A stretch of DNA of 64,000 nucleotides from an uncultured Candidatus Saccharibacteria bacterium (GCA_964574655.1 CAZNOH010000004.1:2046-66045); one strand, 5' to 3'. Positions 4,318 to 58,521 are shown, numbered from the stretch's first letter. Made by a program: numbers and translations. Notes: a model not told the origin generated them from the letters alone.

Positions 4318-4487
4318 ATACAATTTCGATTTGAGATAAAATTGAGGATAACTTTTCAGTCTTAATTTTCAATTTCTAATTTCTAATTTTTATTAAATTT
4401 TTAATTAACTAATTTCTAAACATCGACGACAGAAAAATATTTAAAAATTTAAACATTAAGAATTTATTAGAAATTGAAAATTAGAAA
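4318..4487. repeat. AT-rich imperfect palindrome (aatttctaatttcta vocabulary) with GC core catcgacgacag at 4421-4432
   Basis: Left arm near 4361-4420 is the reverse complement of right arm near 4458-4497; same architecture as 29276-29400 and 31399-31486. Confidence 0.6.
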
Positions 4488-5780
4488 TTAAAAATTCGTT
4501 CTTTGCCACTCTGCACTTTGACGAACTAACAGTTCTTGAGCTCTCTCTGGTTCAGCCATTAATTCTTTAGTTATTTTTTCCATTCTCATGCTTTGAGATC
4601 CTTTTATCAAAACTAAATCACCTGATTTTAAGATTTTGTTTTGAACAAAAAGTCCGGCTTCTTCTGAATTTTGAAATGTAAAAACTTTGTCTTTTGAAAA
4701 GCCAAGACTGATTGCTTCACTTGCAATATATTCGGATGCTTTGCCAACTGCGACAATATAATCTGCAGATTGAGAAGCTAATTTACCTATATCTTTATGG
4801 GCTTCAACTGTTAATGCGCCCAACTCTAACATGTCGGCTAGGCAAGCTATTTTTCTGCCAGATGTTTTTATTTCTTTTAAAGTATTTAAAGCTGACAACG
4901 TTGCTTCTGGAGAAGCATTATAGGTATCATCAATCAGATAAGATCCTTTAATGCCTGGAATTAGATTCATTCTGCCTCTTGGAGCTTTATAATCAAATAG
5001 CAGTTCTGAGATTTCAACTAAATTAATTTTCATTGAGATTGCACATGCAGCTGCTGCTAAAACGGCATAAATTTGAGTTTTACTAAAAATATTTTTCAGC
5101 CTGACTGGAACTTCTTTGCCTTGATAGCGCATTTTAAAATTATAGCCTTGCAAACTTTGTCCTTGAGAAAAATCTGCATTTAAAGATAAATTATCTGCTT
5201 GTAATTCTGATCCTTTAATAAAACCAAAAGTAATTGTTTTTGCTTTTGTTTGTTTTGCTGATAATCTGACGGCAATATCATCATAATTCAAAATTGCAGT
5301 ATCTGCTGAATTTAAGCAACTGATTATTTTTGCTTTTTCTAATAATAACTCTTTTGGACCTTTGAAAAATTCGACGTGAACTGGCCTTTTGCCGATAGCA
5401 GTTATAACAGAAATACTTGGCTTTGCTAAATCTAATAGATAATCCATATCATTCGGCTTGTCAACACCCATTTCTAAAACTAAAATTTTTGGATAATTTT
5501 TTGAACGAATTTGTTTTAGTCCAGAATTAAAAATCTTAAGCCAGCCAATAAGCGAACGGTTAGCTGTTTTTTTACCAATTATTGTTAACGGTAATCCGAT
5601 TTCATTATTATAATTTCCGATTGTTTTTCTGACAGAAAATTTATTTTTCAAAACATGATAAATCGCCTCAACTGTTCCAGTTTTTCCAACACTGCCAGTA
5701 ACGCCAATGATAATTGGTTTTTGATGTTTAATTATTGATTTCGAAATATTTCTTAATATTTTTTGGAGAATAGACTTCAT
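4488..5780 (-). CDS. murF: UDP-N-acetylmuramoyl-tripeptide--D-alanyl-D-alanine ligase (Mur ligase family, MurF-like)
   Basis: Mur ligase P-loop GVTGSVGKTGT; MurF-type IDDTYNASP motif; position in the dcw cluster. Confidence 0.8.
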   Translation of the reverse strand: MKSILQKILRNISKSIIKHQKPIIIGVTGSVGKTGTVEAIYHVLKNKFSVRKTIGNYNNEIGLPLTIIGKKTANRSLIGWLKIFNSGLKQIRSKNYPKILVLEMGVDKPNDMDYLLDLAKPSISVITAIGKRPVHVEFFKGPKELLLEKAKIISCLNSADTAILNYDDIAVRLSAKQTKAKTITFGFIKGSELQADNLSLNADFSQGQSLQGYNFKMRYQGKEVPVRLKNIFSKTQIYAVLAAAACAISMKINLVEISELLFDYKAPRGRMNLIPGIKGSYLIDDTYNASPEATLSALNTLKEIKTSGRKIACLADMLELGALTVEAHKDIGKLASQSADYIVAVGKASEYIASEAISLGFSKDKVFTFQNSEEAGLFVQNKILKSGDLVLIKGSQSMRMEKITKELMAEPERAQELLVRQSAEWQRTNF

Positions 5781-5783
5781 ATT

Positions 5784-6280
5784 AATAACTAAATAACTAA
5801 ATTATAAATAACAAAATTATTTTTTCTTTTCCCTGCCAAAATATATTGAACTCAATATTTTGATTATTTCCTGATATTCTTTTCCTAAATCGATGACTTC
5901 TTCTTTATTACCCAAATTAAGAGAATATAGCATTCTTAACCAACAATCAGTTTCACATGCTTCTTTTCTGGAAATGTTCAAGGAACTTTTGAAATCTTTA
6001 TAGGAATAACCACTACTTGCTTCTGTTAAATTCGCTACAACTGACATTGCTGATCTAATTATTTGCTTGCTGATTTCTTTTGCTTCAATTGAATAAGGAA
6101 TTTTCCTAGCCAATTTGATAACTCGAACTGCTGCTTTAAAACATCTCTGCCAAATATCTTTTTTCTTGTAATCTTTAGACCAAACCATAATCTTAATAAC
6201 TAAATGATAAATAACATAATGACAAAATACTTTAATTTATAATTCTTTTTGTTATTTATAATTTAGTAATTTAGTTATTT
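5784..6280. mobile_element. IVS-like cassette: four-helix-bundle gene flanked by 33-nt terminal inverted repeats (5784-5816 and 6247-6280, one mismatch) plus an extra direct partial copy at 6199-6231
   Basis: aataactaaataactaaattataaataacaaaa versus the reverse complement of ttttgttatttataatttagtaatttagttatt; inserted between ftsI and murF; related copy at 14706-14738. Confidence 0.55.
5817..6188 (-). CDS. Four-helix-bundle protein (23S rRNA intervening-sequence protein family, TIGR02436-like)
   Basis: 123 aa; RSAMSVVANLTEA...LNISRKEACETDCWLRM matches the family consensus; second paralog at 34515-34901. Confidence 0.7.
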   Translation of the reverse strand: MVWSKDYKKKDIWQRCFKAAVRVIKLARKIPYSIEAKEISKQIIRSAMSVVANLTEASSGYSYKDFKSSLNISRKEACETDCWLRMLYSLNLGNKEEVIDLGKEYQEIIKILSSIYFGREKKK

Positions 6281-8013
6281 CAATCGCTCGGTGCTATTTG
6301 ATAGTATTTTAATAATTCTTGAGCAATAGATTTGAATGCTGGACCGGTTACTGATTCGGCCCATACATCTCCACCAGGATTATTTAATTTTACTAAAATT
6401 ACAAAACGAGGATATTTAATCGGACCGAAACCGACAAATGTTGTAATTTTTTTATTTGGATCATAGCCCTTGCCGTCAGCGCTTGGAACTTGAGCAGTAC
6501 CTGTTTTTCCAGCTATTTTATAACCCTCAACTCTGGCTGGCTGTCCAAAACCTTTTTCCATAACTGAAACCATCATTGCTGATAGAGTTTCCGCTGTTTC
6601 TGGTTTAATAACTTGACGGACAGCTTTTGGTTTTGTTGTTTCTTCTGAACCATCTGGCCTGATAACTTTTTTAACGATATATGGTTTTAATAAACGACCG
6701 CCATTTGCAATGCAAGCGATTGCATTTGCAAGCCTCAATGGCGTTGTAGCAATGCCTTGACCAAAACTCATTGTAGCAAAATCCATTTCCGACCATTCGT
6801 TTGGTTTTTTAACTACTGTGCCTATTTCTGTATCTAAGTCTATTCCAGAATTTTCATCAAAGCCATAGTTGATCAAGTAATCGTACATTTTTTCTTTTCC
6901 CAATGTTCTAGCAATTTGAACCATGCCGATATTGTTTGATTTTTCCAAAATCTGCGTGATTGTCAAATCTCCATATGCTTTTTTGTCAAAGTTTTGGATA
7001 GTATACTCGCCTATTTCCATCTTACCGTTATCATTAAATTTTGTATCTGGCGAAATTAAATTGGAATCTAAAGCCATAGAAACTATTAACGGCTTAAAAG
7101 CTGAACCAGGCTCATATTGTTCATAGATATTTGAGTTGCTAAAATCATTAACATTTGCAACGTTAGAATAATCATTCGGATCATAATCTGGATAGCCAGC
7201 CATGGCAATTATCGCGCCAGTCTGCGGATCCATGACAATTGCTGAACCGCTTTCAGCGCCATTTTTTTCAACAGCATCTTTAACAACTGTCTCAACTTTA
7301 TCCTGAATTAAGCGGTCAATTGTTAAAACAATATCGCTGCCATCTTCTGCACCTTGAACTAAATTTTTTGTACCAGAAATAATTTCACCTAGAGTATTTT
7401 TTTCACTTTGTAAAAAACCATTTTTTCCGGAAAGCGTATTGTCATAATATCCTTCAACTCCGTATTGCCCCTTTTTCTGATCATTGACAAAGCCAACAAA
7501 ACCTAAGATATGAGATCCTAAACTCTTGTCTGGATAGTATCTCCAGTCTTCGGTTTGATAGCTAATGCCAGAAAGATTAAGATTTTTAATTTGCTCAATA
7601 GTCTCACTTTCAACTTTATGCTTTATAGGAACATAAAGCCTTTCCTCGTCAGAAATTAAACCAAGAATTTCGTCTTTTGGCATTGAAAGCAGAGGTGTAA
7701 GCAAAATACTGGTAGCATTTTTATCTTCAACCTGCTTTGGGACAGCAAACACCAAATTCATTTTTTTGTTGATAGCTAGAGGATATAATTTTTTGGAAAA
7801 TTTATCTTCAACATAAATCTCGCCTCTTTCAGGAACAAGATCCTCAAACAAGCTATGTTGACCTGAAGCTAATGCTTCGTAATAACCGTATTTAACTACT
7901 TGTAAATTGAATAATCTAAAAACAATTGCAATAACAACGATGACAACTAAAACAAATAGAAAATTTAGGCGATCAAATATTCGGCTTTTTTTTTGCTTTT
8001 TATATTTATCCAC
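6280..8013 (-). CDS. ftsI: Penicillin-binding protein / peptidoglycan D,D-transpeptidase FtsI
   Basis: N-terminal TM; SAFKP (SxxK), KSNN (SxN) and KTGT motifs; dcw context. Confidence 0.85.
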   Translation of the reverse strand: MDKYKKQKKSRIFDRLNFLFVLVVIVVIAIVFRLFNLQVVKYGYYEALASGQHSLFEDLVPERGEIYVEDKFSKKLYPLAINKKMNLVFAVPKQVEDKNATSILLTPLLSMPKDEILGLISDEERLYVPIKHKVESETIEQIKNLNLSGISYQTEDWRYYPDKSLGSHILGFVGFVNDQKKGQYGVEGYYDNTLSGKNGFLQSEKNTLGEIISGTKNLVQGAEDGSDIVLTIDRLIQDKVETVVKDAVEKNGAESGSAIVMDPQTGAIIAMAGYPDYDPNDYSNVANVNDFSNSNIYEQYEPGSAFKPLIVSMALDSNLISPDTKFNDNGKMEIGEYTIQNFDKKAYGDLTITQILEKSNNIGMVQIARTLGKEKMYDYLINYGFDENSGIDLDTEIGTVVKKPNEWSEMDFATMSFGQGIATTPLRLANAIACIANGGRLLKPYIVKKVIRPDGSEETTKPKAVRQVIKPETAETLSAMMVSVMEKGFGQPARVEGYKIAGKTGTAQVPSADGKGYDPNKKITTFVGFGPIKYPRFVILVKLNNPGGDVWAESVTGPAFKSIAQELLKYYQIAPSD

Positions 8014-9745: not shown

Positions 9746-9835
9746 ATTAGTAAATCATGTTAGTAACTTAGGTACTTAGTTTCTTAGGGCTTAGGGTTCT
9801 TTCCCTAAGTACCAAAGGAACCAAGCCCTAAGCAA

Positions 9836-14599: not shown

Positions 14600-14738
14600 A
14601 ATTTATTGTGGTTTATTAGTTAATTAGTTTATTAGTTAATTAGGAAACTGATTAAGATAGCCTAATCAACTAATATAACTAATTAAACTAATCAAACTTT
14701 ATTATTAATTTAGTTATTTAGTTATTTATAATTTAGTT
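14600..14738. repeat. AT-rich palindromic spacer; its last ~33 nt is a copy of the four-helix-bundle cassette terminal repeat
   Basis: 14706-14738 atttagttatttagttatttataatttagttatt is the reverse complement of the 5784-5816 family. Confidence 0.55.
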
Positions 14739-16566: not shown

Positions 16567-16593
16567 TGCTTCAGTTCGAAAAGGAGGAAGGCA

Positions 16594-16821
16594 ATGCTGA
16601 CGTTGACAAGAAGGTCTGGCGAATCGATCATGATTGGCAATGATATTCGAATCGTTGTCCGTGAAATCAAGGGCAACCAAGTGAGAATCGGTATTGATGC
16701 GCCTAATAACGTTCCTATCTGGCGCGAAGAAATCTATGTGAAAATTCAAGACGAAAGTCAAGATCAAGGTCAACAAAATCAAGACAAAGATCTTGGAGTA
16801 ACTGCTCGCTTAGCACTTTAA
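16594..16821 (+). CDS. csrA: Carbon storage regulator CsrA (75 aa with C-terminal extension)
   Basis: MLTLTRRSGESIMIGNDIRIVVREIKGNQVRIGIDAPNNVPIWREEIY matches the CsrA consensus; RBS aaGGAGGaaGG. Confidence 0.8.
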   Translation: MLTLTRRSGESIMIGNDIRIVVREIKGNQVRIGIDAPNNVPIWREEIYVKIQDESQDQGQQNQDKDLGVTARLAL

Positions 16822-16829
16822 AAAAACAA

Positions 16830-16851
16830 CCCTATTAACTAGGGTTTTTTA
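16830..16851 (+). terminator. Hairpin plus T-run terminator (ccctattaactaggg)
   Basis: 5-bp stem followed by T6. Confidence 0.55.
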
Positions 16852-16884
16852 TTTGCAAAAAATTATGACTCTAAATTTTTATTT

Positions 16885-19264: not shown

Positions 19265-19427
19265 AAATTTGAAATTAAATTACAAATCCCAAATTCCAAA
19301 CAAATCACAAATTCCAAATTACAAAATGTTTGAATATTACAATTTGCAATTTGTTTGGGATTTGGAACTTTTTTATTGGTTATTCGATATTGTTATTTTA
19401 CCAGAATAACAAAAATGAGACAATAAA

Positions 19428-26649: not shown

Positions 26650-26780
26650 ACTGAAATCCTAAATCCCAAATCCCAAAAAACAAACAAATTACAAATCACA
26701 AACTACAAAATTTGTTTCTTGGTTTGTTCTTTGTAATTTGGGATTTGTTTGGAATTTGGAATTTGTTATTTCGTCTCTTT
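26650..26780. repeat. AT-rich palindrome (caaatcc/ggatttg vocabulary)
   Basis: cctaaatcccaaatcccaaaaaacaaacaaattacaaatcacaaactacaaaatttg mirrored by ttgtttcttggtttgttctttgtaatttgggatttgtttggaatttgg; related copy at 19265-19380. Confidence 0.55.
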
Positions 26781-26998: not shown

Positions 26999-27080
26999 TT
27001 GGAGCGTCAGAACTTCGGAGCGTCAGAGCGTCGGACGTTACGCCGTTCTGACGCTCCGATTTCCGACGTTCTGAAGCTCC
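26999..27080. repeat. 80-nt imperfect inverted repeat (ggagcgtcagaac / gttctgacgctcc) at the left boundary of the high-GC island
   Basis: ttggagcgtcagaacttcggagcgtc ... gacgctccgatttccgacgttctgaagctccaa. Confidence 0.5.
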
Positions 27081-27091
27081 AATTTACGAAT

Positions 27092-27120
27092 AAAAAAAAG
27101 AAGACCGGTAAGGGTCTTCT
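27092..27120 (-). terminator. Rho-independent terminator of the 617-aa high-GC gene
   Basis: agaagacc-ggtaa-gggtcttct followed on the minus strand by U7. Confidence 0.65.
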
Positions 27121-27215
27121 GAAGGAACGGGAATAGATAGAAATGTGCGGGTAGGTCTGCGTCACGTTGCGTGAGCAGAAACTGAAGTTGTCTGAAGTGT
27201 TGTTGGAAGGTTTTA

Positions 27216-29069
27216 TCAGCCGCCGTTGCCCTTCAGCCGTGGCTTGGCGCTGATCTGCTCGACCGGCTGACCATTGAGCCAGGCGGCCGTCTCGTCCGGC
27301 GTGGCCTCGTTGCTCTGCCCGCTGCCACCCTCGTTGCCGTGGGTGCCGCGCGGGTTCCTCTTCTGGATCGCGCTGCGGACCTGCGGCCCGTCCGGGTTCT
27401 TGGCCATGTACTTCTCGATGCGCATCTTCAGCGTCATCGTCCACAGCTTCCCGATGGCCAAACTGCCGTCCCGCCAGCTGTCATGCTGGTCCTGGGACAT
27501 CTCGTACAGCTCCGCGGCTTGCTCGGGCGTGAGGCTCGAGTCGCTCTTCAGCTTCTCGACGATGAGCTGCTTGCGCAGCTCCATCGCCTGCCACGCCTCC
27601 CACGCCGTCAGCACCACCAGCCGAGGCACCCAGAACTTCCCGCCGCCCTCGGCCTTCTTCAGTCGCCCCTCCTTGTCCACGACCCGGACCGGCACGATCG
27701 CCGTCCGGAAGAGGGGCTTGTTTTCCCGCCCGTAGGTGGTGAGCTGCGTCCCCTCTTCGCTGTTGTTGGGGTTGTCGCTCTTCACCATCAGGCCAGGGTC
27801 GGCCCGGAACCTCTCCAGGTCACCCCAGGACCGAGAGATTTCGGCCGTATTCAGCTTGCCACCGATCAGCCGACGCAACCACTCGATCGTGGCCTCGTGT
27901 TCCTTGTGCTCCTCGCTCGGCGCGGTCTCGGGGGCCAGCTCGATGAGGTCGGCGAGGTCGTCCACGACGCCCTCGACGTACTCGGCCTTCTTGCCCGCCG
28001 CTTCCTTCGCCCGCTGCTCCATCTCGGCGATCTGCTGACGCTCCCACGTCTCGCGGTTGATCTCGTGGATGTTCTTGAGCAGCTGCCATGCTTCCGACCC
28101 GCGGTACTTCCGGCTCTTCTCCATCAGCTCGACACGGAGCGCATCCATGCACTCCTGCGAGAGCTTGCCGGCCAGGGTCTCCGCGTTGCGCTCGTCCTTG
28201 AACTCGGGGTGGTGCTCGGCCATGATCTTGTCCCACACCGCCCACGAGCCTTCGACCATCTCCTTCTCGCGCTTGCCGGCCCACCGAGCCCACTTAATGT
28301 AGCCGTCCTTGTAGGTGAAGCTCAGGGGCTCCCGCAACGCGGGGTTTTCCCGGTTCAGGAGCGGCCGTAGCAGCTTCATCCCCGTCTCGATCTTGCCCAG
28401 CACGGGCATGCAGATCGCCGGGGGCTGCTGGTCCTTGTTGAAGTACCCCGGCTTCAGCTTCTTCATGAGCTGGACGACGGTACCTCGCTTGTCGCCCTGG
28501 GACAGGTGGATCTCGCTCATCGCGATCACCACGATGCCGTTCGGGCTGAAGGCCTGGTTCTCACCGAGCTGATCCGACACCACGAGCACCTCTTCCGGGT
28601 GGAAGAAGCACCCGACGGCCTTCGGGTAGTCCGGCTCGCTCGCCTTGTGGTAGTCCTCGTTGTCCTTCTCGCGCTGCTGCCGGTTGCGCTCCCGCGCGGC
28701 CTTCCGCCGTTGCTGCCGGGCGCGCCTCATGTCCTGCTTCTCCTGCCGGGTGAGCGGGCGCCCGACCTTGGCCTCCTCGGCCGCCTCCTCGGCTTGGGTC
28801 TCCTGCTCGTCCTCGTCGTCCCCGTCCTCGACCACGACGCCGTCCTCCACCACGGGGGCGGGGGGCTCGGCGACGGGCTGCTCGGTCACGATCTCGGTCT
28901 GCTCGGTCTTCTTGACGCGGGGCTTGCGCACCCGCTTCGGCTTCTCGACCTTCTCGGGCTCAACCTGGGCCTCCTCGGCCTGGGTCTCGCCATCCTTCAC
29001 CTCCTTCTTCTGCTCGGTGTTGTTGACGGTGATCTGGGAATCGGTCTTGGGTCCGCGCTTCGTACTCAT
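27216..29069 (-). CDS. Hypothetical 617-aa protein, about 65% GC: N-terminal ~140-aa charged disordered region (KPKRVRKPRVKK) then a large alpha-rich globular region; no recognised family
   Basis: Single long ORF with strong codon periodicity; RBS aGGAGGgtagaagag-ATG; own promoter-like TTGACA...TATAAA and own terminator; the plus-strand ORFs over it are high-GC artefacts. Confidence 0.6.
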   Translation of the reverse strand: MSTKRGPKTDSQITVNNTEQKKEVKDGETQAEEAQVEPEKVEKPKRVRKPRVKKTEQTEIVTEQPVAEPPAPVVEDGVVVEDGDDEDEQETQAEEAAEEAKVGRPLTRQEKQDMRRARQQRRKAARERNRQQREKDNEDYHKASEPDYPKAVGCFFHPEEVLVVSDQLGENQAFSPNGIVVIAMSEIHLSQGDKRGTVVQLMKKLKPGYFNKDQQPPAICMPVLGKIETGMKLLRPLLNRENPALREPLSFTYKDGYIKWARWAGKREKEMVEGSWAVWDKIMAEHHPEFKDERNAETLAGKLSQECMDALRVELMEKSRKYRGSEAWQLLKNIHEINRETWERQQIAEMEQRAKEAAGKKAEYVEGVVDDLADLIELAPETAPSEEHKEHEATIEWLRRLIGGKLNTAEISRSWGDLERFRADPGLMVKSDNPNNSEEGTQLTTYGRENKPLFRTAIVPVRVVDKEGRLKKAEGGGKFWVPRLVVLTAWEAWQAMELRKQLIVEKLKSDSSLTPEQAAELYEMSQDQHDSWRDGSLAIGKLWTMTLKMRIEKYMAKNPDGPQVRSAIQKRNPRGTHGNEGGSGQSNEATPDETAAWLNGQPVEQISAKPRLKGNGG

Positions 29070-29275
29070 CTCTTCTACCCTCCTAGGAGTCTTGGAACCA
29101 GAAACTGAAAACGCGCGCGCTCTAAACGCAGCATTGCACTGCGAAAAGCCATGTCCTGGAATAGTGGGAATAATCTGAATAATAATAATTTTTTATAACC
29201 TTCCAAATTGTCAGTGTTCTAGAATTACTATCAATATCTTGGCTCAAAATATTTTGAGACAAACTGCTGACAGCT

Positions 29276-29400
29276 AACTTTTAATTTACAATTATCAATT
29301 ATCAATTTTCAATAAATGACCAATTACCAATTTTCAATCCGACGACAACTGTCATTGTAAATTGATCATTGAAAATTTATTGTAAATTGGAAATTGATAA
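29276..29400. repeat. AT-rich palindrome (aattatcaatt vocabulary) with core ccgacgacaac
   Basis: Arms mirror around 29339-29349; native-style element separating the two high-GC cassettes. Confidence 0.55.
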
Positions 29401-29553
29401 TTTTTAAACGTCCGCCTCAAATAACAATGTATCCATTATTATTTCAGGTGGTGCCACAGAAAATGTGGCAAGAAAAGGTACTGGGGGATGGAATGTGGGG
29501 TTCGCTGAAGTGCTTGGGTGAGTTACTAGGCTCGTCGCTTGATCAGGTCAGGC

Positions 29554-29772
29554 TCAGCCCGACTTGGATCCCCGCGACTTGCCCTTCGCGCTGAGCTCCT
29601 GCGAGGTCTTGCCGGCACCAGCGACGACGGCGCCACGTGCCGGGGCCAGGTCACCGACGGCGACCTCGCCAAGGTTCTTCTCCTTCGTCTTCGCCTTCGC
29701 CGGACACATGCCCTTGCCATGCCGGTCGCCTCCGCTCTGAACTCGCTGGTGACAGTAGATGCAGTTCGACAT
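29554..29772 (-). CDS. Small 72-aa high-GC protein with CxxCH...C zinc-ribbon-like N-terminus and Lys-rich tail
   Basis: agaaGGAGGaaaagtcgcg-ATG; MSNCIYCHQRVQSGGDRHGKGMCPAKAKTKEK...; the ORF track places the start 18 codons upstream, but the SD-positioned ATG is at 29772. Confidence 0.5.
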   Translation of the reverse strand: MSNCIYCHQRVQSGGDRHGKGMCPAKAKTKEKNLGEVAVGDLAPARGAVVAGAGKTSQELSAKGKSRGSKSG

Positions 29773-29832
29773 CGCGACTTTTCCTCCTTCTCTCGAGTGA
29801 CTCTCTATTGGTCCCCCTCCCCGCAAACGTGA

Positions 29833-29999
29833 CTGAGATAATAGCTAATAGTTGATAGCTAATAGTCGTTCTATTAGCTCTTAGCTATAAGCTATTATCA
29901 CGATTCCGTCCATTTATTAGAGGCCGAAATGGCTCGGCAAGGACTAAAAAAGATTAATTCCCTGGAGACCATTTCACCTCCTCTAATAGATAGACGGAG
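29833..29999. other. Structured non-coding segment: atagctaatag palindrome (29833-29906) then a 19-nt inverted repeat (tccgtccatttattagagg / cctctaatagatagacgga) enclosing a ~55-nt core
   Basis: Perfect or near-perfect complementarity read directly; no ORF. Confidence 0.4.
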
Positions 30000-33747: not shown

Positions 33748-34446
33748 TTATTTAATAATAGTTCCAATCTTTTCACCTGCAATAACTTTTTTCAGATTGT
33801 CTTCCTTTTTAACATTAAAAACTACAATAGTCAATCCATTATCGCGCGCTAGAGAGAAAGCAGTCTGATCCATGACAGCTAATTTTTTAGATAGTACTTC
33901 GTCATAAGAAAGTTCATCATATTTTTTTGCATTTGGATTTTCATTTGGATCAGAATCATAAACGCCATCAACATTAGTTGCTTTTAAAACAATGTCACAA
34001 TTTGTTTGCAAAGCATGCAACACGGCACCAGTATCAGTTGAAAAAAATTGGTTACCAGTTCCTCCACCCATAATAACAATCTTTTTTTCATCCATATAAT
34101 GGATTGCTTTTCCAGGAGTGTAATATTGAATAATATAAGGCATGTAAATTTGCGATAGTGCCCTTGCTTCTTGATGTCCAAATTTATCAATTGCTTCACG
34201 CAAATTAATAGCATTCATCACTGACCCTAGCATTCCGAGATTATCAGCAATAGTTCTTTTCATTTCTTTTTCTTCCTTGCCACGATAAATATTACCAGCG
34301 CCGATTTCAACAATTACTTGCTTGCCCATTTTTACTAATTCAACAATTTGGCTAGCATATTTAGAAACTGTTTCTTGGTCGATTCCAAAATCTTTGTCAC
34401 CCATCATTAATTCACCTGATAATTTTAACATTATTCGATTGTACAT
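33748..34446 (-). CDS. pyrH: UMP kinase
   Basis: MLKLSGELMM N-terminal signature; amino-acid kinase fold. Confidence 0.85.
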   Translation of the reverse strand: MYNRIMLKLSGELMMGDKDFGIDQETVSKYASQIVELVKMGKQVIVEIGAGNIYRGKEEKEMKRTIADNLGMLGSVMNAINLREAIDKFGHQEARALSQIYMPYIIQYYTPGKAIHYMDEKKIVIMGGGTGNQFFSTDTGAVLHALQTNCDIVLKATNVDGVYDSDPNENPNAKKYDELSYDEVLSKKLAVMDQTAFSLARDNGLTIVVFNVKKEDNLKKVIAGEKIGTIIK

Positions 34447-34458
34447 AGTTTTGTTTTT

Positions 34459-34951
34459 AAGTAAAAATTAAAAAGTAAAAAGGTAAAAGTTACAAGTCAA
34501 AAGTCAAAAAACTATTAATAATATTTTTTGGCTTTTGCTTTTAAAATTATTGAAGCTAAAATATTTGTAATTTCGTTTAATTCTTCCAATAAACTTTTTA
34601 CTTCGCTTAAAATATTTTGATTTTTTGTAAGATCAGAATCCCTCAACAATCCTAACCAAAATTTTGATTCATTGCCAGACCTTAAAGCAATGCCATAATA
34701 CTTAATAAATTCTTTCTTAGATGAAGACGCCTGAACCTCAATGATATTTGCACCAATGCTACTTCCTGACCTGAGCAATTGTTTCAAAATAACTTCCGTT
34801 GATAAATTTCTAGGAAATTTGTTAGAAAGTTTAATTATCCTAATAGCAAAAAAATAAACTCTTTTCTTAATATCATAAATTTTCCCTTCTTCGTTCGTCA
34901 TTTTTTTACTTTTTTACTTGTGGCTTTTTACTTTTTCCTTTTGACTTTTAC
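34459..34951. mobile_element. IVS-like cassette: second four-helix-bundle gene flanked by gtaaaag/gtcaaaag-vocabulary inverted arms (34459-34510 and 34902-34951) between pyrH and tsf
   Basis: Arms share k-mers in inverted order; a homologous gene-free arm lies at 42165-42215. Confidence 0.5.
34515..34901 (-). CDS. Four-helix-bundle protein (TIGR02436-like), paralog of 5817-6188
   Basis: RLLRSGSSIGANIIEVQASSSKKEFIKYYGIALRSGNESKFWLGLL. Confidence 0.7.
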   Translation of the reverse strand: MTNEEGKIYDIKKRVYFFAIRIIKLSNKFPRNLSTEVILKQLLRSGSSIGANIIEVQASSSKKEFIKYYGIALRSGNESKFWLGLLRDSDLTKNQNILSEVKSLLEELNEITNILASIILKAKAKKYY

Positions 34952-34958
34952 CTTATCA

Positions 34959-35549
34959 TTAAATTTCGAATCTCGTAAATCTTTTGATCACAATTTTTTC
35001 TCCCAACTTCGCAGTTGTTTCAACTAATAAATCTTGAACAGTTTTTTCAGGATCTTTAACTAGAGCTTGAGTTGTTAAAGCATTTTCTTCACAATATTTT
35101 TTTACTTTTCCGTCCATAATTTTGTCAGCAATCTCTTTTGGTTTGCCCATCTTATTGATTTCTTCTTGCCATTCTTTTTTTAATTCTTCTAATTTTTCAG
35201 CTGGAACTTCTTCAGGAGAAATACAAATTGGATTTGAGGCTGCAACTTGAATAGCAATATCGTGCGCCATTTGTTGGAAATCTTGGTTTCTTGCTACAAA
35301 ATCTGTTTCACAAAGCAATTCAACCATTGTGCCAATTTTTTTGTTAGCATGAATATAACAATCAATAATGCCTTCACTTGCTTCTCTACCTGCTTTTTTA
35401 GCCATGATTTCTTGGCCTCTTTTCTTTAATAATTTGATTGCTTCATCATAATTTCCATTTGCTTCTTCTAAGGCTTTTTTACAGTCCATCATGCCTGCTC
35501 CAGTTTGCATTCTTAGATTTTTGATGTCTTCCATTTTTATTTGCGTCAT
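34959..35549 (-). CDS. tsf: Elongation factor Ts (short form)
   Basis: N-terminal UBA-like LRMQTGAGMMDCKKALEEANGNYDEAIKLLKKRG. Confidence 0.85.
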   Translation of the reverse strand: MTQIKMEDIKNLRMQTGAGMMDCKKALEEANGNYDEAIKLLKKRGQEIMAKKAGREASEGIIDCYIHANKKIGTMVELLCETDFVARNQDFQQMAHDIAIQVAASNPICISPEEVPAEKLEELKKEWQEEINKMGKPKEIADKIMDGKVKKYCEENALTTQALVKDPEKTVQDLLVETTAKLGEKIVIKRFTRFEI

Positions 35550-35580
35550 ACGTTTATTGTTAAAATTTTGAAATAGATAT

Positions 35581-35670
35581 TCCGCGATTTCTGCGTTTTA
35601 TTCTGCATTTTCTGCGATTAGGGCTTTAACGCAGAATGACGCTGAAATGTACGCAGAAGACGCAGAATAC
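35581..35670. repeat. Gene-free palindrome of the tctgcg/cgcaga vocabulary family (three tctgcg units, then three cgcaga units)
   Basis: Same family, including the attccgcgattt string, as the arms flanking the GxxExxY gene at 55708-56254. Confidence 0.55.
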
Positions 35671-35913
35671 AAATATCTCGTAATTTATATTGTTGACAAA
35701 TTAATAATTATATAATATAATATTTAGTGCTCTTTTTAAATTCAGCTATTGTTTTGATCATGAGTTATCCCTATTATCCGCGTGTAATCCGTTAAAATCC
35801 GTTTTTCAAAAACGCGGGTGCAGACTGATTGCACACGGATAAAACGGATAACTTGCAACTTCAGAGTAGCAGAACTAAAACGCAAAGTCAAAGGCAAAAC
35901 GAGGAGGAAGAGA

Positions 35914-37419
35914 ATGGCTGAGCCAGTAGATCTTGATCTTGATGATCTGCTCGAATTGCTTGTTTCTACAGATCCAATGCCAAAGTCTGGTTCTTGTGCA
36001 AAAGCTTCCACTTGTTTGGAAAAAAAAGATTTTGCTGGTGCTTTGTCTCATTGTGAGCAAGCTCTTGAAGAAGATCCTTGCAATGGATTGGCAATGAATC
36101 TCCAAATTCATGTCCTGTTCGAATCTGATCAAAAAGATTTGGCAATGGCAAAGCTTGGATATTTGCTGAAATTCTTTCCAAATCTTCAAAGCGCAAATCT
36201 TACTGAACTTGTAGCATTGTTTTCTGATCGAGATGACGAGATTGGTTATCTCACGTTTCAAGTAAAAGCTTGCTTGGAACAAAGGAGATTTGAAGATGCA
36301 ACTAATTATTGCAATGATGCTCTATTGATAAATCCTCTGTCTTGCCAAGCACTTTGCTTGCAAGTGCAGATTCAACTTTCCATGAAGGAATTTGACAAAG
36401 CTGAATATGGCCTGCGCCATTTACTGAAATATTATGGCCAAAACAAGCAAGTAGGTTTTCTAGCAAGAAACTATATTGAAGCAATGATTGCTGAAGACAA
36501 GTTTGCTGATGCATTGATCTTCTTTGTCCAGTTCAGAGAGGATCGCTCTCTGGCTTTGAGCTATGTTGGAACAGCTTGTTCAAGGTATGCAGAATACGAA
36601 CGTAAGGCTGTCAAAGAGCTTGAAGACCGCAACGAACAAAGATTAAAGCTGGCTGAAGCAGAAATAGTTTTCAGAGAAGCAATCGCATATTTGCAAGACT
36701 TGCCAATCTTTTTGATTCAGGCCTTTGAGGGCTTGCTCTATGTGTATCTGGAATGGTCTAAGAAATTCAAGGATGACAAGATCGTTGAGATGCTGGCACT
36801 CCTGAATCAAGCAGAAAGTCTGCAAGTCAGAGTGCCGCCAAGAATCTATGCTGCTTTTGTCTTTTACTATGCACGTAAGCCGTCCTTTTTTTGCCAAGCA
36901 ACAGAGTACTTGGCGAGATGCAGATTGGCTGACGCAACTGATGAAAAAGCTGTACAGGCAACTCGCGCATACTTGGGACATTTGAAAGAGCATCGCCGAA
37001 CTGCAGCTAACGTAACAGATCGCGAAATGAAAATAACAAGACTGCAACAACTGGCATTAGTCTGCAAAGATGCTTTGAAGTTATTTAATGATAGAGAAAT
37101 TCTGGCAGCGATTTCAGTGAATCTGCTCTTCATCTTTCTCTTGATCTCCAAAATGGTTGCCAAATCACGATTATCAGATATGCTAGAAACACTGCAATCT
37201 TTGGAGATGGTGGTTGATGAAGAAAACCGTACGCCAGAAATGTATCTGCCTTTTGTCTATTATTTCACGCAAGTGAGAAAAGACAAAAATCAGGCAGATT
37301 ATTTCATGGCTCGTTGCGAACAACATATTTGTTCAAATGAAAAAGAGTACCTTGAACCAGCATACGTGGCTTATCAAGTCGCATTTGGAACGTCCTTTGG
37401 GATTGATCAGTCTTCATGA
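35914..37419 (+). CDS. Hypothetical alpha-helical TPR-like protein (~502 aa; foreign cassette)
   Basis: GC about 42%; RBS aacGAGGAGGaagaga-ATG at 35914 (the ORF track extends upstream without a start); hairpin plus T-run after the stop. Confidence 0.55.
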   Translation: MAEPVDLDLDDLLELLVSTDPMPKSGSCAKASTCLEKKDFAGALSHCEQALEEDPCNGLAMNLQIHVLFESDQKDLAMAKLGYLLKFFPNLQSANLTELVALFSDRDDEIGYLTFQVKACLEQRRFEDATNYCNDALLINPLSCQALCLQVQIQLSMKEFDKAEYGLRHLLKYYGQNKQVGFLARNYIEAMIAEDKFADALIFFVQFREDRSLALSYVGTACSRYAEYERKAVKELEDRNEQRLKLAEAEIVFREAIAYLQDLPIFLIQAFEGLLYVYLEWSKKFKDDKIVEMLALLNQAESLQVRVPPRIYAAFVFYYARKPSFFCQATEYLARCRLADATDEKAVQATRAYLGHLKEHRRTAANVTDREMKITRLQQLALVCKDALKLFNDREILAAISVNLLFIFLLISKMVAKSRLSDMLETLQSLEMVVDEENRTPEMYLPFVYYFTQVRKDKNQADYFMARCEQHICSNEKEYLEPAYVAYQVAFGTSFGIDQSS

Positions 37420-37615
37420 GAGGCTGATTTTTTTTGCTTACGAATCGCACAAATGCCTTACGACCGCGAATCTCGCTAATACACTTTTTGGCTTATTCTT
37501 CCCATTTCCCACGTCCTATTTCCCATTTCACAAATGGCATTGACAAAAATAAGGTGCTGTGATATGATGAAAGGCTCTAAATTCGGAGCGTACTCTCACA
37601 GCGTGGAGGTATGAG

Positions 37616-38206
37616 ATGTCTCGCCAGGTTCCGGTGGATCAGTTCGAAGGGCTGGGGCTCCTGCCCCTGATCATCCTCGTAAAGGTGGCCGGAATCGGTC
37701 CCTGGATTGAGGCTCTGCTGCCCGAACGGCAGTACAACGCAGACGCGGTTGCCGCAAGGCGCCGCAAGGAGGCGGAGGAACTCGGAATCTCGTTCGGGAT
37801 CCGACGTGACGGGATGGATGACACAGGTTGCAACGTGATCTGCAACCGGCAATTCGTGTGGATCGACGCTCTTCTGGCGGGATTCGCCATGGAGAGATAC
37901 AAGATCACGGAAGCGAGCTGGTTCTGGCGCGAGGATGAGCGAGGACGGAAGCGCTTCCTCCAGCTCGCCTTCACCATGACCGGCGATGCTATTTCTCTAC
38001 CGAAACGTGTTTCACGGATGTTCGCCGTGGGCGTGGTTCCTTTCGTGAACGTCTGGGCAAACGTTCGCGAGAGTGGTGAAGAGCTGTTTCGGCTCGACAC
38101 CATCAATGTCCCTAGCCCCCGCATGAACGTGGTGGCCGAGGAGGAGTTGCACTGCAGCTTCTCTCCCGGTCGATACACCTACCTCACCACCGCTCCCCAC
38201 CGCTAG
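37616..38206 (+). CDS. Hypothetical 196-aa protein (GC about 58%; foreign cassette)
   Basis: RBS gtGGAGGtatgag-ATG; followed by the terminator at 38249-38278. Confidence 0.55.
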   Translation: MSRQVPVDQFEGLGLLPLIILVKVAGIGPWIEALLPERQYNADAVAARRRKEAEELGISFGIRRDGMDDTGCNVICNRQFVWIDALLAGFAMERYKITEASWFWREDERGRKRFLQLAFTMTGDAISLPKRVSRMFAVGVVPFVNVWANVRESGEELFRLDTINVPSPRMNVVAEEELHCSFSPGRYTYLTTAPHR

Positions 38207-42161: not shown

Positions 42162-42261
42162 AAAGGTAAAAGTAAAAAATAAAAAGGAAAAAGTTACAAT
42201 TCAAAAGTAAAAAAAACTGACGTTGACAAGAATGGCTTAATGTTATATTCTTGGTAGAACT

Positions 42262-52167: not shown

Positions 52168-52605
52168 CTAAACTTTTTCAAAAATTATTTTTTTGTTTTT
52201 AAGATCAGCAAAATATATTTCAGTTTTTACTCTTTTATACTTTTTCTCTAATATTTTTTTTGATTTAATCAAATTTTTAAGATGCACTTTTTTTTCTTTT
52301 TCAGGATTATTGTCAAATGCTTTTAAACCGCCATAAGCCCCGCAATCGATATGGTCAATCAAAATAATGTTTTTGATGTGATGTAGTTTTGTGGAAACTT
52401 CTAGTTGATCAAAAACAGTTTTTTTGTGAGCTAAATCTTTTGGATTGGCAATTGTTTTTGTAGCACCAGCTAGAGTAATCAAATCAACTTTTTTTAATTT
52501 TAACTCCTGGTTAATAAATTTAATTGTTGCATCTTTAAAACGAAAATCAATGCAAAATATTGTAGCAGCTTCAGCATGATGTTCGTTGATAAATTTGTAG
52601 GACAT
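52168..52605 (-). CDS. Short beta-carbonic-anhydrase-like protein (CxDxR and HxxCG motifs)
   Basis: FCIDFRF and IDHIDCGAYGG; only 145 aa. Confidence 0.4.
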   Translation of the reverse strand: MSYKFINEHHAEAATIFCIDFRFKDATIKFINQELKLKKVDLITLAGATKTIANPKDLAHKKTVFDQLEVSTKLHHIKNIILIDHIDCGAYGGLKAFDNNPEKEKKVHLKNLIKSKKILEKKYKRVKTEIYFADLKNKKIIFEKV

Positions 52606-52749
52606 AAATTACAATTTCTAATTATTAATTCCTAATTTCTATTCAATTTTCAATAACTAATTCCAAAATTACTACTAAATTTGAATAACTTTTTTTAAAA
52701 TTTTTCATTTAAAATTCAATGGAAATTAGTAATTAGAAATTAGTAATTT
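52606..52749. repeat. AT-rich palindrome (aatttctaatt / aattagaaatt vocabulary) between the CA-like gene and atpC
   Basis: Arms mirror each other; same vocabulary as 4318-4487 and 18010-18178. Confidence 0.5.
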
Positions 52750-53175
52750 TTATCTATACACTTTCTTAGATTTTCTCTTCTTAACAACTTTAAGTCTTGC
52801 CAAAGATCGGCGCAAATCAGCGGCTGCAGCAGAGTATTCTTCTTTTTTCAAATCTTTTTTAGCCATTGTTTCTTTGGCTTGCTTCATAGCTTCTTCAGCT
52901 TTTTGCTCATCAATTTCTTCAGCATGTTCAGCAGCGTCGGCTAAAACGATTGCTTTGTCAGGATTAATTTGGGCAAAACCACCAGAACAGGCTAGAATTG
53001 TTTCATTACTGCCTTGTTTTATTCTAATTTCTCCGGGGGCTAAAGAAGTGACCAAATGAAGATGTTTTGGCAAGATTCCAATTTCGCCTTCTTCGGTTGG
53101 CAAAACAACGGAGTCAACTTCGTCATTAAAAACTTGTTTTTCTAAACTGATAATTTCTAGGATTAATTTAGACAT
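52750..53175 (-). CDS. atpC: ATP synthase epsilon subunit
   Basis: Sequence and operon position. Confidence 0.85.
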   Translation of the reverse strand: MSKLILEIISLEKQVFNDEVDSVVLPTEEGEIGILPKHLHLVTSLAPGEIRIKQGSNETILACSGGFAQINPDKAIVLADAAEHAEEIDEQKAEEAMKQAKETMAKKDLKKEEYSAAAADLRRSLARLKVVKKRKSKKVYR

Positions 53176-53179
53176 TCCA

Positions 53180-53310
53180 TTTTAATAGCTAATAACCAAT
53201 AACCAATAATCAACGAATAACCAATATCCAATAACTAAATAATCAAAGATCAAAATTGGTTATTGAAATTTGATTATTGATTATTCTTTGGATATTGATT
53301 ATTGGTTATT
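53180..53310. repeat. AT-rich palindrome (ccaataa / ttattgg vocabulary) between atpD and atpC
   Basis: aataaccaataaccaataatcaacgaataacc mirrored by ggttattgaaatttgattattgattatt. Confidence 0.5.
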
Positions 53311-54786: not shown

Positions 54787-55701
54787 TTAAGATTTAAGGG
54801 CTTCTGCTCCTGCTGTAATTTCCGCTAACTCTCGAGTAATATTGGCTTGTCTTGCTTGATTATAAGTGAAGCTTAAATCGGAAATCATGTCTTTAGCATT
54901 ATAAGAAGCATTTTGCATTGCAACCATTCTAGCGGAATGTTCGGAAGCAGTTGATTCAACGATTGCTTGGTAAACTTGCATGTCAACTAATCTTGGCAAA
55001 AGAGTTGCTAAAATTTGTTGAGCTGATGGCTCAAAAATATATTCAGTCTTTGTTTTTTGCAAAGTATTTTTTTCAATTACCTCTTCTTCTTTTTTGCCAG
55101 TTTTGGTCAGATCAATTAATTTATTTTTTTCAAACGGAAGCAGTTGTTGCATTTTAGCGTCTTGTTTTAAAGTGGAAACATATTCGGTAAAGAGAATATT
55201 TATTTGATCATATTTTGCTGATGTGAAAGTATCAATTGGAATTTGAGCAATTGAGGTTGCATCAGTTATTTTAATTTTGTCGCCGATTCTTTCGTATTGA
55301 GCAATAATGTTGCCGATTTTTTTAACAAAATCAATTCCCTTTTTGCCAACGCAAAGAAAATCTATTTCTTGATTTTCTTTTTTTGCTTGGTCTAAAAATT
55401 TTAAAGTCTTTTTAAATAAATTAGAATTCAATCCGCCACAAAGTCCTTTGTCAGGAGAAACTAGGACAACTAAAACTTTTTTGACTGCTCTTTTGTTTAA
55501 TAATGGATGCGCGCCTTTTTGCATGTTCTCGGAAATACTGCCCAAAACTTCAAGAGCAGTCTTGGCATAATATCGCGTACGCAAAGCAGCCACTTGCGCT
55601 TTTTTCATCTTGGCAGCTGCAACCATCTGCATGGCTTTAGTGATCTGTTTTGTATTATTTATAGATTTGATGCGACGTTTTAGGTCTCTGGTAGATGCCA
55701 T
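54787..55701 (-). CDS. atpG: ATP synthase gamma subunit
   Basis: Conserved N- and C-terminal helices. Confidence 0.85.
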   Translation of the reverse strand: MASTRDLKRRIKSINNTKQITKAMQMVAAAKMKKAQVAALRTRYYAKTALEVLGSISENMQKGAHPLLNKRAVKKVLVVLVSPDKGLCGGLNSNLFKKTLKFLDQAKKENQEIDFLCVGKKGIDFVKKIGNIIAQYERIGDKIKITDATSIAQIPIDTFTSAKYDQINILFTEYVSTLKQDAKMQQLLPFEKNKLIDLTKTGKKEEEVIEKNTLQKTKTEYIFEPSAQQILATLLPRLVDMQVYQAIVESTASEHSARMVAMQNASYNAKDMISDLSFTYNQARQANITRELAEITAGAEALKS

Positions 55702-55707
55702 AGTATT

Positions 55708-56254
55708 GACGCAGAATTACGCAGAAGCTAACGCAGAAGACGCAGAACTTTTGCATCTTGCTGTGTCATAAACTCTACGAATTATTTCTGCTCCTTTAGG
55801 ATAACCAAAATTGACTAGAAATCCTAATTTATATTGTGAATTCTTAAGGTAATGCCAAAATTGTTCGATGTCTTGTTTGAACAAATTTGGTTTTGCTTTG
55901 AGTTCAATTAGAATTTTATCATTAATAATTAAATCTGGTATATAAATTCCAATTTTCTTGTTTAAATAATAAATACTTATTCTCTTTTGTTTATCAACTT
56001 TAAAACCTTGCTGTAGCAATCCGAAATAAAATGCTTCCTGATAAACTTTTTCTTTATGTCCGCTACCTAAAGTTTTATAAATCTCAAAGATAATTCCTCT
56101 GATTTTATATGATTCTTGTTTATATAAAAAGTCTGCCATTTCCCTCCTAAAATAACTTACTTATTTTTTATCTGCATTGTCTGCGTCAACTTCTGCATTA
56201 TTCCGCGATTTGTTTTCTGCTTTTTCTGCGTTCGCTTCTGCGTCATTCTGCGTT
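55708..56254. mobile_element. IVS-like cassette inside the atp operon: GxxExxY gene flanked by cgcagaa repeats (55708-55748) and inverted tctgcg repeats (56170-56254)
   Basis: Same repeat family as the gene-free palindrome at 35581-35670; located between atpA and atpG. Confidence 0.55.
55717..56139 (-). CDS. GxxExxY-family protein (PD-(D/E)XK-like, rRNA-IVS-associated family, TIGR04256-like)
   Basis: SYKIRGIIFEIYKTLGSGHKEKVYQEAF...ILIELKA...KLGFLVNFG; the last ~12 codons run into the flanking repeat and may be an ORF-caller artefact. Confidence 0.65.
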   Translation of the reverse strand: MADFLYKQESYKIRGIIFEIYKTLGSGHKEKVYQEAFYFGLLQQGFKVDKQKRISIYYLNKKIGIYIPDLIINDKILIELKAKPNLFKQDIEQFWHYLKNSQYKLGFLVNFGYPKGAEIIRRVYDTARCKSSASSALASA

Positions 56255-57774: not shown

Positions 57775-57810
57775 AATTTTAAAATTAAAAAGTAAAAATG
57801 ATGTAACTCT

Positions 57811-57896
57811 GTCATCCTGAGCCGCAGCGAAGGATCCCCTGCTTAAAATGCAAATCTTTTATCCATGGGATTCTTCGGCTGCGGCCTCAGAATGAC
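57811..57896. repeat. Large intercistronic hairpin 1 of a GC-rich 27-nt repeat family (gtcatcctgagccgcagcgaaggatcc paired with ggattcttcggctgcggcctcagaatgac) between atpA and atpH; the atpH stop codon lies inside the repeat
   Basis: Read directly; about 27-bp stem with ~30-nt loop. Confidence 0.6.
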
Positions 57897-58426: not shown

Positions 58427-58437
58427 TTTTTTAAATT

Positions 58438-58513
58438 GTCATTCTGAGCCGTAGCGAAGAATCCCGTAAATGTTCAATAAACTTTGGGATCCTTCACTGC
58501 GGTTCAGGATGAC
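58438..58513. repeat. Large intercistronic hairpin 2 of the same 27-nt family (gtcattctgagccgtagcgaagaatcc paired with ggatccttcactgcggttcaggatgac) between atpF and atpH
   Basis: Arm sequences cross-match hairpin 1 arms (a~rc b', b~rc a'). Confidence 0.6.
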
Positions 58514-58521
58514 AGGGTAAA

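Follow-up and report, generated by a model that had tools for sequence, protein, structure and literature searches.

Genes of rRNA intervening-sequence families between inverted repeat arrays inside core operons of a Candidatus Saccharibacteria genome

Why do small genes of families that are normally encoded in the intervening sequences (IVSs) of 23S rRNA lie within core protein-coding operons, and what kind of element carries them? The question is raised by a stretch of 64,000 nucleotides (nt) from an uncultured Candidatus Saccharibacteria bacterium (GCA_964574655.1, CAZNOH010000004.1:2046-66045; hereafter the window), in which three small minus-strand genes of this tiny-genome Patescibacteria bacterium occupy the ftsI|murF, tsf|pyrH and atpA|atpG spacers. 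The window is low-GC DNA (~32%), and its closest relatives are metagenome-assembled genomes of Patescibacteria (Candidate Phyla Radiation, CPR), the nearest being 'Patescibacteria group bacterium STF1_73' with a MurF identity of 87% (in the following, the 87% relative). Each gene lies between inverted arrays of short repeats, an architecture that is specific to these genes; motif and gene travel together, the occupied site is polymorphic among lineages, and both gene and arms are under purifying selection. With a little better than even confidence we favour the reading that each locus is a small IVS-type cassette, a heritable unit that was mobile at the DNA level in the past. The comparison of ~90 related loci suggests that the classical IVSs of rRNA belong, as one subset, to a far larger class of mobile cassettes that has apparently not been described.

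The genes, arms and flanks of the three sites are the following.

4488-5780, minus strand: murF, flank of site 1 (HMM search)
5784-5816, minus strand: site 1 3' arm in mRNA sense, ending 3 nt before the murF ATG
5817-6188, minus strand: HB1, four-helix-bundle gene, 123 aa (PF05635 2.6e-25, TIGR02436 1.5e-27)
6192-6222, minus strand: internal extra arm copy of site 1, just upstream of the HB1 start codon and conserved in L010/L003
6247-6279, minus strand: 5' arm of site 1 (mRNA sense), beginning immediately behind the ftsI stop, about four 8-nt units like TAAATTAC
6280-8013, minus strand: FtsI-type penicillin-binding protein gene, flank of site 1 (HMM search)
33748-34446, minus strand: pyrH (UMP kinase), flank of site 2
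34459-34509, minus strand: 3' arm of site 2, with 12 nt between its end and the pyrH ATG
34515-34901, minus strand: HB2, four-helix-bundle gene, 128 aa (PF05635 9e-19, TIGR02436 2.8e-23)
34904-34954, minus strand: 5' arm of site 2, an array of AAGTNAA heptamers that begins a few nt past the tsf stop
34959-35549, minus strand: tsf (EF-Ts), flank of site 2
54787-55701, minus strand: atpG (ATP synthase gamma), flank of site 3
55709-55747, minus strand: site 3 3' arm, TTCTGCGT array in sense, overlapping the end of the GxxExxY open reading frame (ORF) and stopping 7 nt before the atpG ATG
55717-56139, minus strand: GxxExxY/PDDEXK_3 gene, 140 aa (PF13366 2.4e-30, TIGR04256 1e-29)
56171-56253, minus strand: site 3 5' arm region, two direct copies (56215-56253 and 56171-56207) of a ACGCAGAA array with short spacers
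56161-57774, minus strand: atpA (ATP synthase alpha), flank of site 3

The initial annotation had recognised two four-helix-bundle (4HB) genes and one GxxExxY gene of IVS-associated families, each bracketed by inverted arms within a core operon, and both parts of this description are borne out. In searches with hidden Markov models (HMMs), HB1 reached 89.1 bits with PF05635 and 95.9 bits with TIGR02436, and HB2 68.1 and 82.2 bits (curated cut-offs 33.8 and 24); the GxxExxY protein scored 105.7 bits with PF13366 and 103.3 bits with TIGR04256 (cut-offs 22 and 35). A single-sequence search with HB1 yielded 3756 cluster representatives (50% identity) at E <= 1e-3. Among PDB sequences HB1 matches 2rld (5e-13) and 2gsc, both deposited with five chains. 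By analogy with these homologues, and with the pentamer mentioned where PMC4990558 cites Lin 2006, the 4HB protein would probably assemble into a homopentameric toroid. The GxxExxY protein had no match among PDB sequences, and a viral contig scan contained none of its relatives. It carries the motifs GHKEKVY and PD-x9-ELK, its PD-(D/E)XK catalytic residues (E30, D69, E79 and K81) are invariant across 18 homologues, and its gene is preceded by an AGGAGG 5 nt upstream of the ATG. None of the three cassette proteins matched a PADLOC defence-system model.

Each cassette takes up essentially the whole spacer between co-oriented flanking genes. At site 1 the arms (5784-5816 and 6247-6279) are 33 nt long and 97% complementary, as expected from the 33-nt terminal repeats described initially, and the extra copy described with them (6192-6222) can pair locally with 6244-6274 (31 nt, 84%). 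The arms of site 3 (55709-55747 and 56215-56253) are 90% complementary over 39 nt, and those of site 2 (34459-34502 and 34904-34947) only 75% over 44 nt, with 30-nt sub-stretches reaching 83%. ORF calls and inverted-repeat scoring were simple and ungapped; the repeat scores of 30, 19 and 27 for sites 1, 2 and 3 exceed everything obtained in 500 shuffles per site (maxima 13, 13 and 12, means 7-8.5). Folding of the sense RNA, proposed beforehand as a check, gave pairing of the arms across the gene in the minimum free energy and in the centroid structure at all three sites. The arms, AT-rich arrays with lengths of 33-50 nt, are unlike a GC-rich repetitive extragenic palindrome (REP) or the short GC-rich stem of a terminator. 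Terminators were considered separately as an identity of the palindrome and rejected, as no terminator-like site was found in 5700-6400. No minus-strand sigma-70-like promoter was predicted for cassette 1. The window contains no rRNA, and no relevant Rfam family was found, neither in the whole window at the gathering threshold nor in E-value searches of sites 1 and 3.

The arms also reach into annotated coding sequence. The AtpA ORF overruns the AtpA family model by ~32-36 codons (56161-56265), and this tail, which is encoded by the arm array of site 3, is rich in NAE/DAE (~32 aa) and has a similar counterpart in the 87% relative (L170). Likewise, GxxExxY ORFs end in S/A-rich tails that are translated from the 3' arm.

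Whether such arms are a general property of these genes was addressed by a metagenome scan seeded with a 4HB alignment (A3), which gave 80 loci with GC contents of 0.31-0.62. In this sample, which was retrieved by two peptide patterns and covers one PF05635 subclade with some near-duplicates, a bracketing inverted repeat with a score of at least 14 was present at 51 of the 69 evaluable 4HB loci and at none of 126 neighbouring ORFs (Fisher 6e-32). The arms have a period of 7 nt in 41 cases and of 8 nt in 12 (53 arms), with ~4-5 units per arm and a median copy number of ~3.9. The array has a fixed polarity with respect to the gene (AAGT 16:0 and AATG 16:1 versus their complements). The upstream neighbour is co-oriented at 55 of 59 loci (93%, versus a baseline of 75%; p 3e-4), which fits a dependence on read-through transcription; the downstream neighbour is at the baseline.

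These counts bear on the most trivial explanations, namely a chance similarity of low-complexity sequence in spacers that are indeed AT-rich and repetitive, or an accessory gene (Avd) of a diversity-generating retroelement (DGR). PF05635, the family of the 4HB cargo, includes Avd, a pentameric, basic, nucleic-acid-binding protein. Yet, the arms beat every shuffle and are absent around the 126 control genes, which rules out a chance origin, and the neighbours are murF, ftsI, tsf, pyrH, atpA and atpG, none of them a reverse transcriptase or part of a template/variable repeat pair. This housekeeping context rules out the DGR reading. Taken together, these explanations are barely credible.

Some loci of the same sample are themselves rRNA IVSs. 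Three 4HB genes from termite-gut metagenome contigs (L100, L101 and L120) lie within 23S rRNA, and the corresponding Rfam large-subunit matches (131-698 bits) identify these loci as bona fide IVSs. Their arms consist of CAGTTGA/AATTGA(G) heptamers, the same as those of a non-rRNA locus located after a ruvA-like ORF (L109). At the level of sequence, these comparisons show that the non-rRNA cassettes share their design with true 23S rRNA IVSs. The known IVSs of Leptospira, Coxiella burnetii, Xanthomonas and Brucella, and the 23S_rRNA_IVP insertions of CPR bacteria, have the same two ORF families, a length of ~430-550 nt, a gene within terminal complementary sequences that form a ~30 bp stem, and no promoter of their own. 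In the Coxiella IVS, RNase III is described as cleaving a terminal stem of 28 bp, and the arm contains GACAGAT heptamers in three to four tandem copies (PMC4990558). A survey of rRNA insertions in CPR bacteria places 23S_rRNA_IVP ORFs in both 16S and 23S genes.

There are also differences. The host transcript of the window's cassettes is a protein-coding operon (dcw, tsf-pyrH or atp), and a flanking ORF can run into an arm, which is then translated as its tail. The encoded proteins are under strong purifying selection, whereas the Coxiella S23p is reported to be decaying and probably untranslated. Finally, rRNA IVSs are excised by RNase III without re-ligation, whereas the cassettes described here are known from sequence and predicted folds.

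If cassettes of this kind are units, arm motif and gene should be found together elsewhere. A relative of HB1 with 70% identity (L009) has the same TAATAACTAAATTATAAAT arms, but adjoins a DUF5678 gene. An HB2 relative with 57% identity (L187) has GGTAAAA arms and is located between PPDK-like and glmS-like genes. Homologues of the GxxExxY protein (59-68% identity) are located in operons for pilins or surface proteins, all of them with ACGC[AG]GAA repeats upstream and TTC[CT]GCGT downstream. Among 4HB proteins, those with a common motif flavour share 67% identity, versus 53% otherwise, and a flavour can persist to ~50% protein identity, well beyond neutral decay. These sequence comparisons show that a protein clade keeps its arm motif when it moves to other genomic contexts, down to ~50-57% identity.

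Such a clade-specific motif could also be explained by autoregulation. The encoded protein, as a pentameric ring, could bind its own mRNA at the array of roughly five heptamers in a TRAP-like manner; the complementary arm would serve as an anti-array by which the start region is masked or exposed, so that the arms would regulate the gene and neither move nor excise it. The conservation of the motif to ~50% protein identity would be expected here, as would the ~4-5 units per arm next to homologues that crystallise with five chains (as given in PMC4990558 with reference to Lin 2006), and the internal arm copy beside the start codon of site 1 allows alternative pairings. However, the GxxExxY nuclease has an unrelated fold but the same architecture around its gene, the motifs also occur in hairpins and solo arrays that lack a gene, and neither the insertion polymorphism nor the rRNA locations are explained. 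Autoregulation alone therefore appears improbable, and the mobile cassette remains the preferred explanation for the joint distribution of motif and gene.

How recently the cassettes moved can be judged from orthologous sites. All three cassettes recur in the 87% relative, at the same junctions and with the same motif flavour (L010/L003-6, L185 and L170), including an HB2 ortholog with 88% identity at tsf|pyrH (L185). The ratio of nonsynonymous to synonymous substitution rates (dN/dS) is 0.07 for HB1 (versus L010) and 0.10 for the GxxExxY gene (versus L170), with 0.05-0.11 for the flanking genes, and the synonymous divergence (dS) of the cassette genes (~0.6-1.0) is similar to that of the flanking genes. 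The low dN/dS and the flank-like dS indicate that the proteins are functional and that the cassettes have been inherited vertically since the split from the 87% relative. Non-coding parts of the cassettes are 84-88% identical, yet 54% of the synonymous sites differ, which indicates that the arms are constrained as well. At least one arm change has its counterpart on the other arm, with AACTAAA/TTTAGTT in the window and AACAAAA/TTTTGTT in the relative. At site 3, the 5' arm unit ACGCAGAA of the window corresponds to ACGCGGAA in L170, with most units changed alike and one TTCTGCG and one TTCCGCG unit retained in the 3' arm of L170. Such like changes in most units suggest concerted evolution of the repeats.

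More distant Patescibacteria keep the order rsmH-ftsL-ftsI-murF, but their ftsI|murF spacer is variable. It measures 11-24 nt in L016-L021 and L046, which were treated as empty; in L012 and L015 it holds a hairpin of 145-234 nt without any gene. In L011 the junction (2072-2506) carries a gene for a 117-aa 4HB protein between TAACGTA heptamer arms. This protein is only 18% identical to HB1, although MurF and FtsI of L011 are 55% and 50% identical to those of the window. As an ortholog with a similar dN/dS should match the conservation of its flanks, the L011 gene is, judged from its sequence, best read as an independent occupant of the site. The comparison of syntenic loci, which had been suggested together with the initial annotation, thus finds the same junction empty, with a hairpin only, or filled by a non-orthologous cassette. 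The claim that mobile cassettes have colonised mRNA operons therefore stands in part: a mobile unit is favoured by the clade-specific motif in varied contexts and by the turnover at ftsI|murF, but the cassettes of the window are not recent colonists.

These results have to be weighed against a reading without any present mobility, in which the loci are domesticated, operon-internal RNA elements. The hairpins would be processing or stability signals by which the host tunes operon stoichiometry, the small proteins would be host factors acting on them, and the likeness to IVSs would reflect shared ancestry only. The retention of three cassettes at the same sites with a dN/dS of 0.07-0.10 and a flank-like dS is what this reading predicts, and it also accommodates the arm conservation well above synonymous sites, the exclusively intergenic position of the window's hairpins (21 of 21; see below) and the lack of a transposase or a defined target-site duplication. 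It does not account for the same unit of motif and gene in unrelated contexts including 23S rRNA, for a non-orthologous cassette and empty spacers at one ftsI|murF junction, or for the turnover of gene-free hairpins between the window and the 87% relative. In addition, the PDDEXK_3 phylogeny has been reported to show 'multiple transfers, mixed clades' (PMC3424549). On balance, a purely domesticated origin is rather unlikely, and cassettes that were mobile in the past remain the favoured explanation.

Several observations nevertheless count against this favoured explanation and limit how far it can be taken. The nearest relative, at a dS of ~0.6-1, has all three cassettes as fixed insertions, so that any movement must be ancient or rare here. 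Given the strong purifying selection in a reduced genome, a function that benefits the host fits as well as a selfish one. The whole-cassette folding z is -5.7 at site 3 but only -1.6 at sites 1 and 2. Among the mismatches of 57 arm pairs, sense-strand G:U pairs are not in excess (50 versus 61 A:C, p 0.34). The comparison is weakened by the ungapped alignment and by the ambiguous register of tandem arrays; it offers no positive sign of selection for pairing at the RNA rather than the DNA level. HMM searches found no transposase domain in the cassette proteins and Rfam no intron ribozyme, and a target-site duplication cannot be defined without a closely related empty site. The narrow sampling of the 4HB survey described above belongs here as well.

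Nearly every spacer of the window holds a palindrome of like design that is built from some other motif. A scan detected 21 strong local hairpins in the 11 kb of intergenic DNA and none in the 53 kb of coding DNA (shuffled control: 1), so that hairpins make up a large share of the non-coding DNA. They consist of tandem 7-8-nt motifs of several flavours, among them TTCTAAAT, CAAATCC and CCAATAA, with examples at 4364-4496, 19289-19365, 26661-26771, 29290-29402, 52604-52757 and 53191-53310. Three gene-free elements are of the same motif families as the cassettes.

14706-14738, strand not assigned: solo, unpaired AATAACTAAAT-type array in the rplJ|rplL spacer, adjoining a hairpin of a different motif at ~14610-14700
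35578-35672, minus strand: gene-free hairpin of the ACGCAGAA/TTCTGCG family (the site 3 motif) upstream of tsf, -45 kcal/mol, z -7.4
42162-42215, strand not assigned: solo GTAAAAG-type array without inverted partner and without predicted structure (z 0.19)

All three had been listed initially as gene-free members of the arm families, but only the element at 35578-35672 is a hairpin, the other two (42162-42215 and 14706-14738) being solo arrays. The idea that they provide pairs of empty and filled sites within the window had to be dropped, as they are not empty versions of the same sites; the true comparisons are the orthologous loci elsewhere. Within 42162-42261 the solo GTAAAAG array abuts the start codon of a methyltransferase gene and lies beside a perfect TTGACA-N17-TATATT promoter of a divergent radical-SAM gene. 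The gene-free hairpins downstream of murF (4364-4496) and upstream of rsmH (9746-9835) are absent in the 87% relative (L010), which has unrelated sequence at both positions next to a conserved promoter-like segment. This absence suggests that gene-free hairpins turn over faster than gene-bearing cassettes. GC-rich palindromes of tgtcatcctgagccgcagcgaaggatcc and its complement (57800-57886 and 58437-58514) in spacers of the atp operon represent a class distinct from the AT-rich heptamer hairpins.

The abundance of gene-free hairpins points to a variant of the cassette model, in which hairpin repeats spread by themselves, like miniature inverted-repeat transposable elements (MITEs), and the gene is a homing-type passenger whose product cuts empty cognate hairpins, after which a filled copy serves as repair template and the arms provide the homology. 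A gene-free hairpin with the motif of cassette 3 in the same window, the density of hairpin families in this genome, the invariant PD-(D/E)XK catalytic residues and the occurrence of hairpin-only and filled states at one site (ftsI|murF) are all compatible with such a route. The 4HB protein, however, lacks a nuclease motif, most hairpin flavours of the window have no cognate gene there, and a filled and empty pair with identical flanks was not found. Overall, this variant with homing into pre-existing hairpins is distinctly improbable.

In the favoured model, a cassette consists of one promoter-less gene, either for a 4HB protein of the pentamer family or for a PD-(D/E)XK nuclease of the GxxExxY type, between inverted arrays of ~4-5 short repeat units each, whose sequence is specific to the protein clade. 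On this model it settles in tiny spacers of co-transcribed genes or in rRNA helices and is transcribed there from the host promoter. The arms would then form a double-stranded RNA stem of ~30-40 bp in the polycistronic RNA, which RNase III would cut by analogy with rRNA IVSs; the cut would detach the cassette RNA and thereby make the insertion tolerable. The self-excision at the RNA level that was suggested initially is inferred from the same analogy (PMC4990558). The repeat units may be binding sites of the cassette's own protein, and the co-variation of motif and protein, the match of about five units to the pentameric 2rld and 2gsc, and the invariant PD-(D/E)XK site all point to recognition of the cognate array. 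The encoded protein would mediate mobility or maintenance. Movement at the DNA level might proceed by a transposon-like use of the arms or by homing into cognate hairpins, driven by a nuclease and with homology provided by the arms.

Known mobile elements resemble the cassettes in part. MITEs, foldback transposons and REP/REPIN elements are likewise intergenic and palindromic, form multi-copy families within one genome, occur in gene-free beside gene-bearing copies and differ in presence or absence between relatives. MITEs and foldback transposons also have terminal inverted repeats, which in foldback elements are built of short tandem repeats. Unlike these elements, the cassettes have no recognisable transposase or RAYT (the REP-associated tyrosine transposase), no target-site duplication was seen, and the cargo is a 4HB or a small PD-(D/E)XK protein; their AT-rich 7-8-nt arrays further differ from the GC-rich stems of REP/REPIN elements. 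Homing endonuclease genes, among them the LAGLIDADG/GIY-YIG insertions in rRNA genes of CPR bacteria (PMC11270868), share small selfish-looking ORFs at conserved sites, a sporadic phylogenetic distribution and empty and filled versions of a site, and one of the cassette cargoes has, by its sequence motifs, a nuclease fold with an apparently intact active site. In contrast to homing endonuclease genes and mobile introns, no group I or II intron RNA was found here with Rfam, and the arms are repeats that belong to the element, not exon sequence of the host.

The nature and spread of IVSs and the function of their ORFs have been an open question since the early 1990s, and in PMC4990558 an origin as transposon remnants and one as mobile elements both still figure as undecided hypotheses. 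The IVSs themselves, with their stems and ORF families, are already known, and the frequency of these families outside rRNA is implicit in genome annotation; curator notes of NCBIfam/TIGRFAM reportedly mention a location in IVSs and multicopy occurrence. In the open-access literature, however, no description was found of IVS-type cassettes splitting essential mRNA operons, nor of a general bracket of inverted heptamer arrays or its clade specificity. The data recast the question: ORF and inverted heptamer arrays appear as one unit whose array sequence co-varies with the protein, and the same units reside both in rRNA and in ordinary operons. A likely role is thereby assigned to two very large families of 'unknown function' (PF05635 and PF13366). 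The results also affect genome annotation, as AtpA and cassette proteins carry tails that are translated from arm sequence, and they bear on the dense palindromes in intergenic DNA of CPR bacteria. More tentatively, and with less than even confidence, the rRNA IVSs may be only that minority of a large, so far unrecognised superfamily of mobile cassettes without promoters which resides in rRNA. In this generalisation, the encoded pentameric 4HB protein or small PD-(D/E)XK nuclease would recognise its own clade-specific inverted arrays of about five 7-8-nt units in order to move or persist at the DNA level, the arrays would fold into an RNase III-type stem that renders the insertion into essential transcripts harmless, and gene-free derivatives would account for a large share of the intergenic DNA of Patescibacteria.

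Apart from the cassettes, two regions of the window deviate from the 32% GC of the genome, namely 27000-29900 (up to 0.56) and 35800-38200 (up to 0.445). The first includes an ORF for a K/E-rich protein of 617 aa (27216-29069, minus strand) with no Pfam, PADLOC or plasmid match and a small high-GC ORF at 29554-29826; the second contains an ORF at 35818-37419 (plus strand) with weak TPR matches only. Foreign DNA may account for these GC-rich islands, or they may be a set of genes of odd composition. A further small ORF (16594-16820), located in the spacer 16567-16884, appears CsrA-like by raw sequence inspection only.

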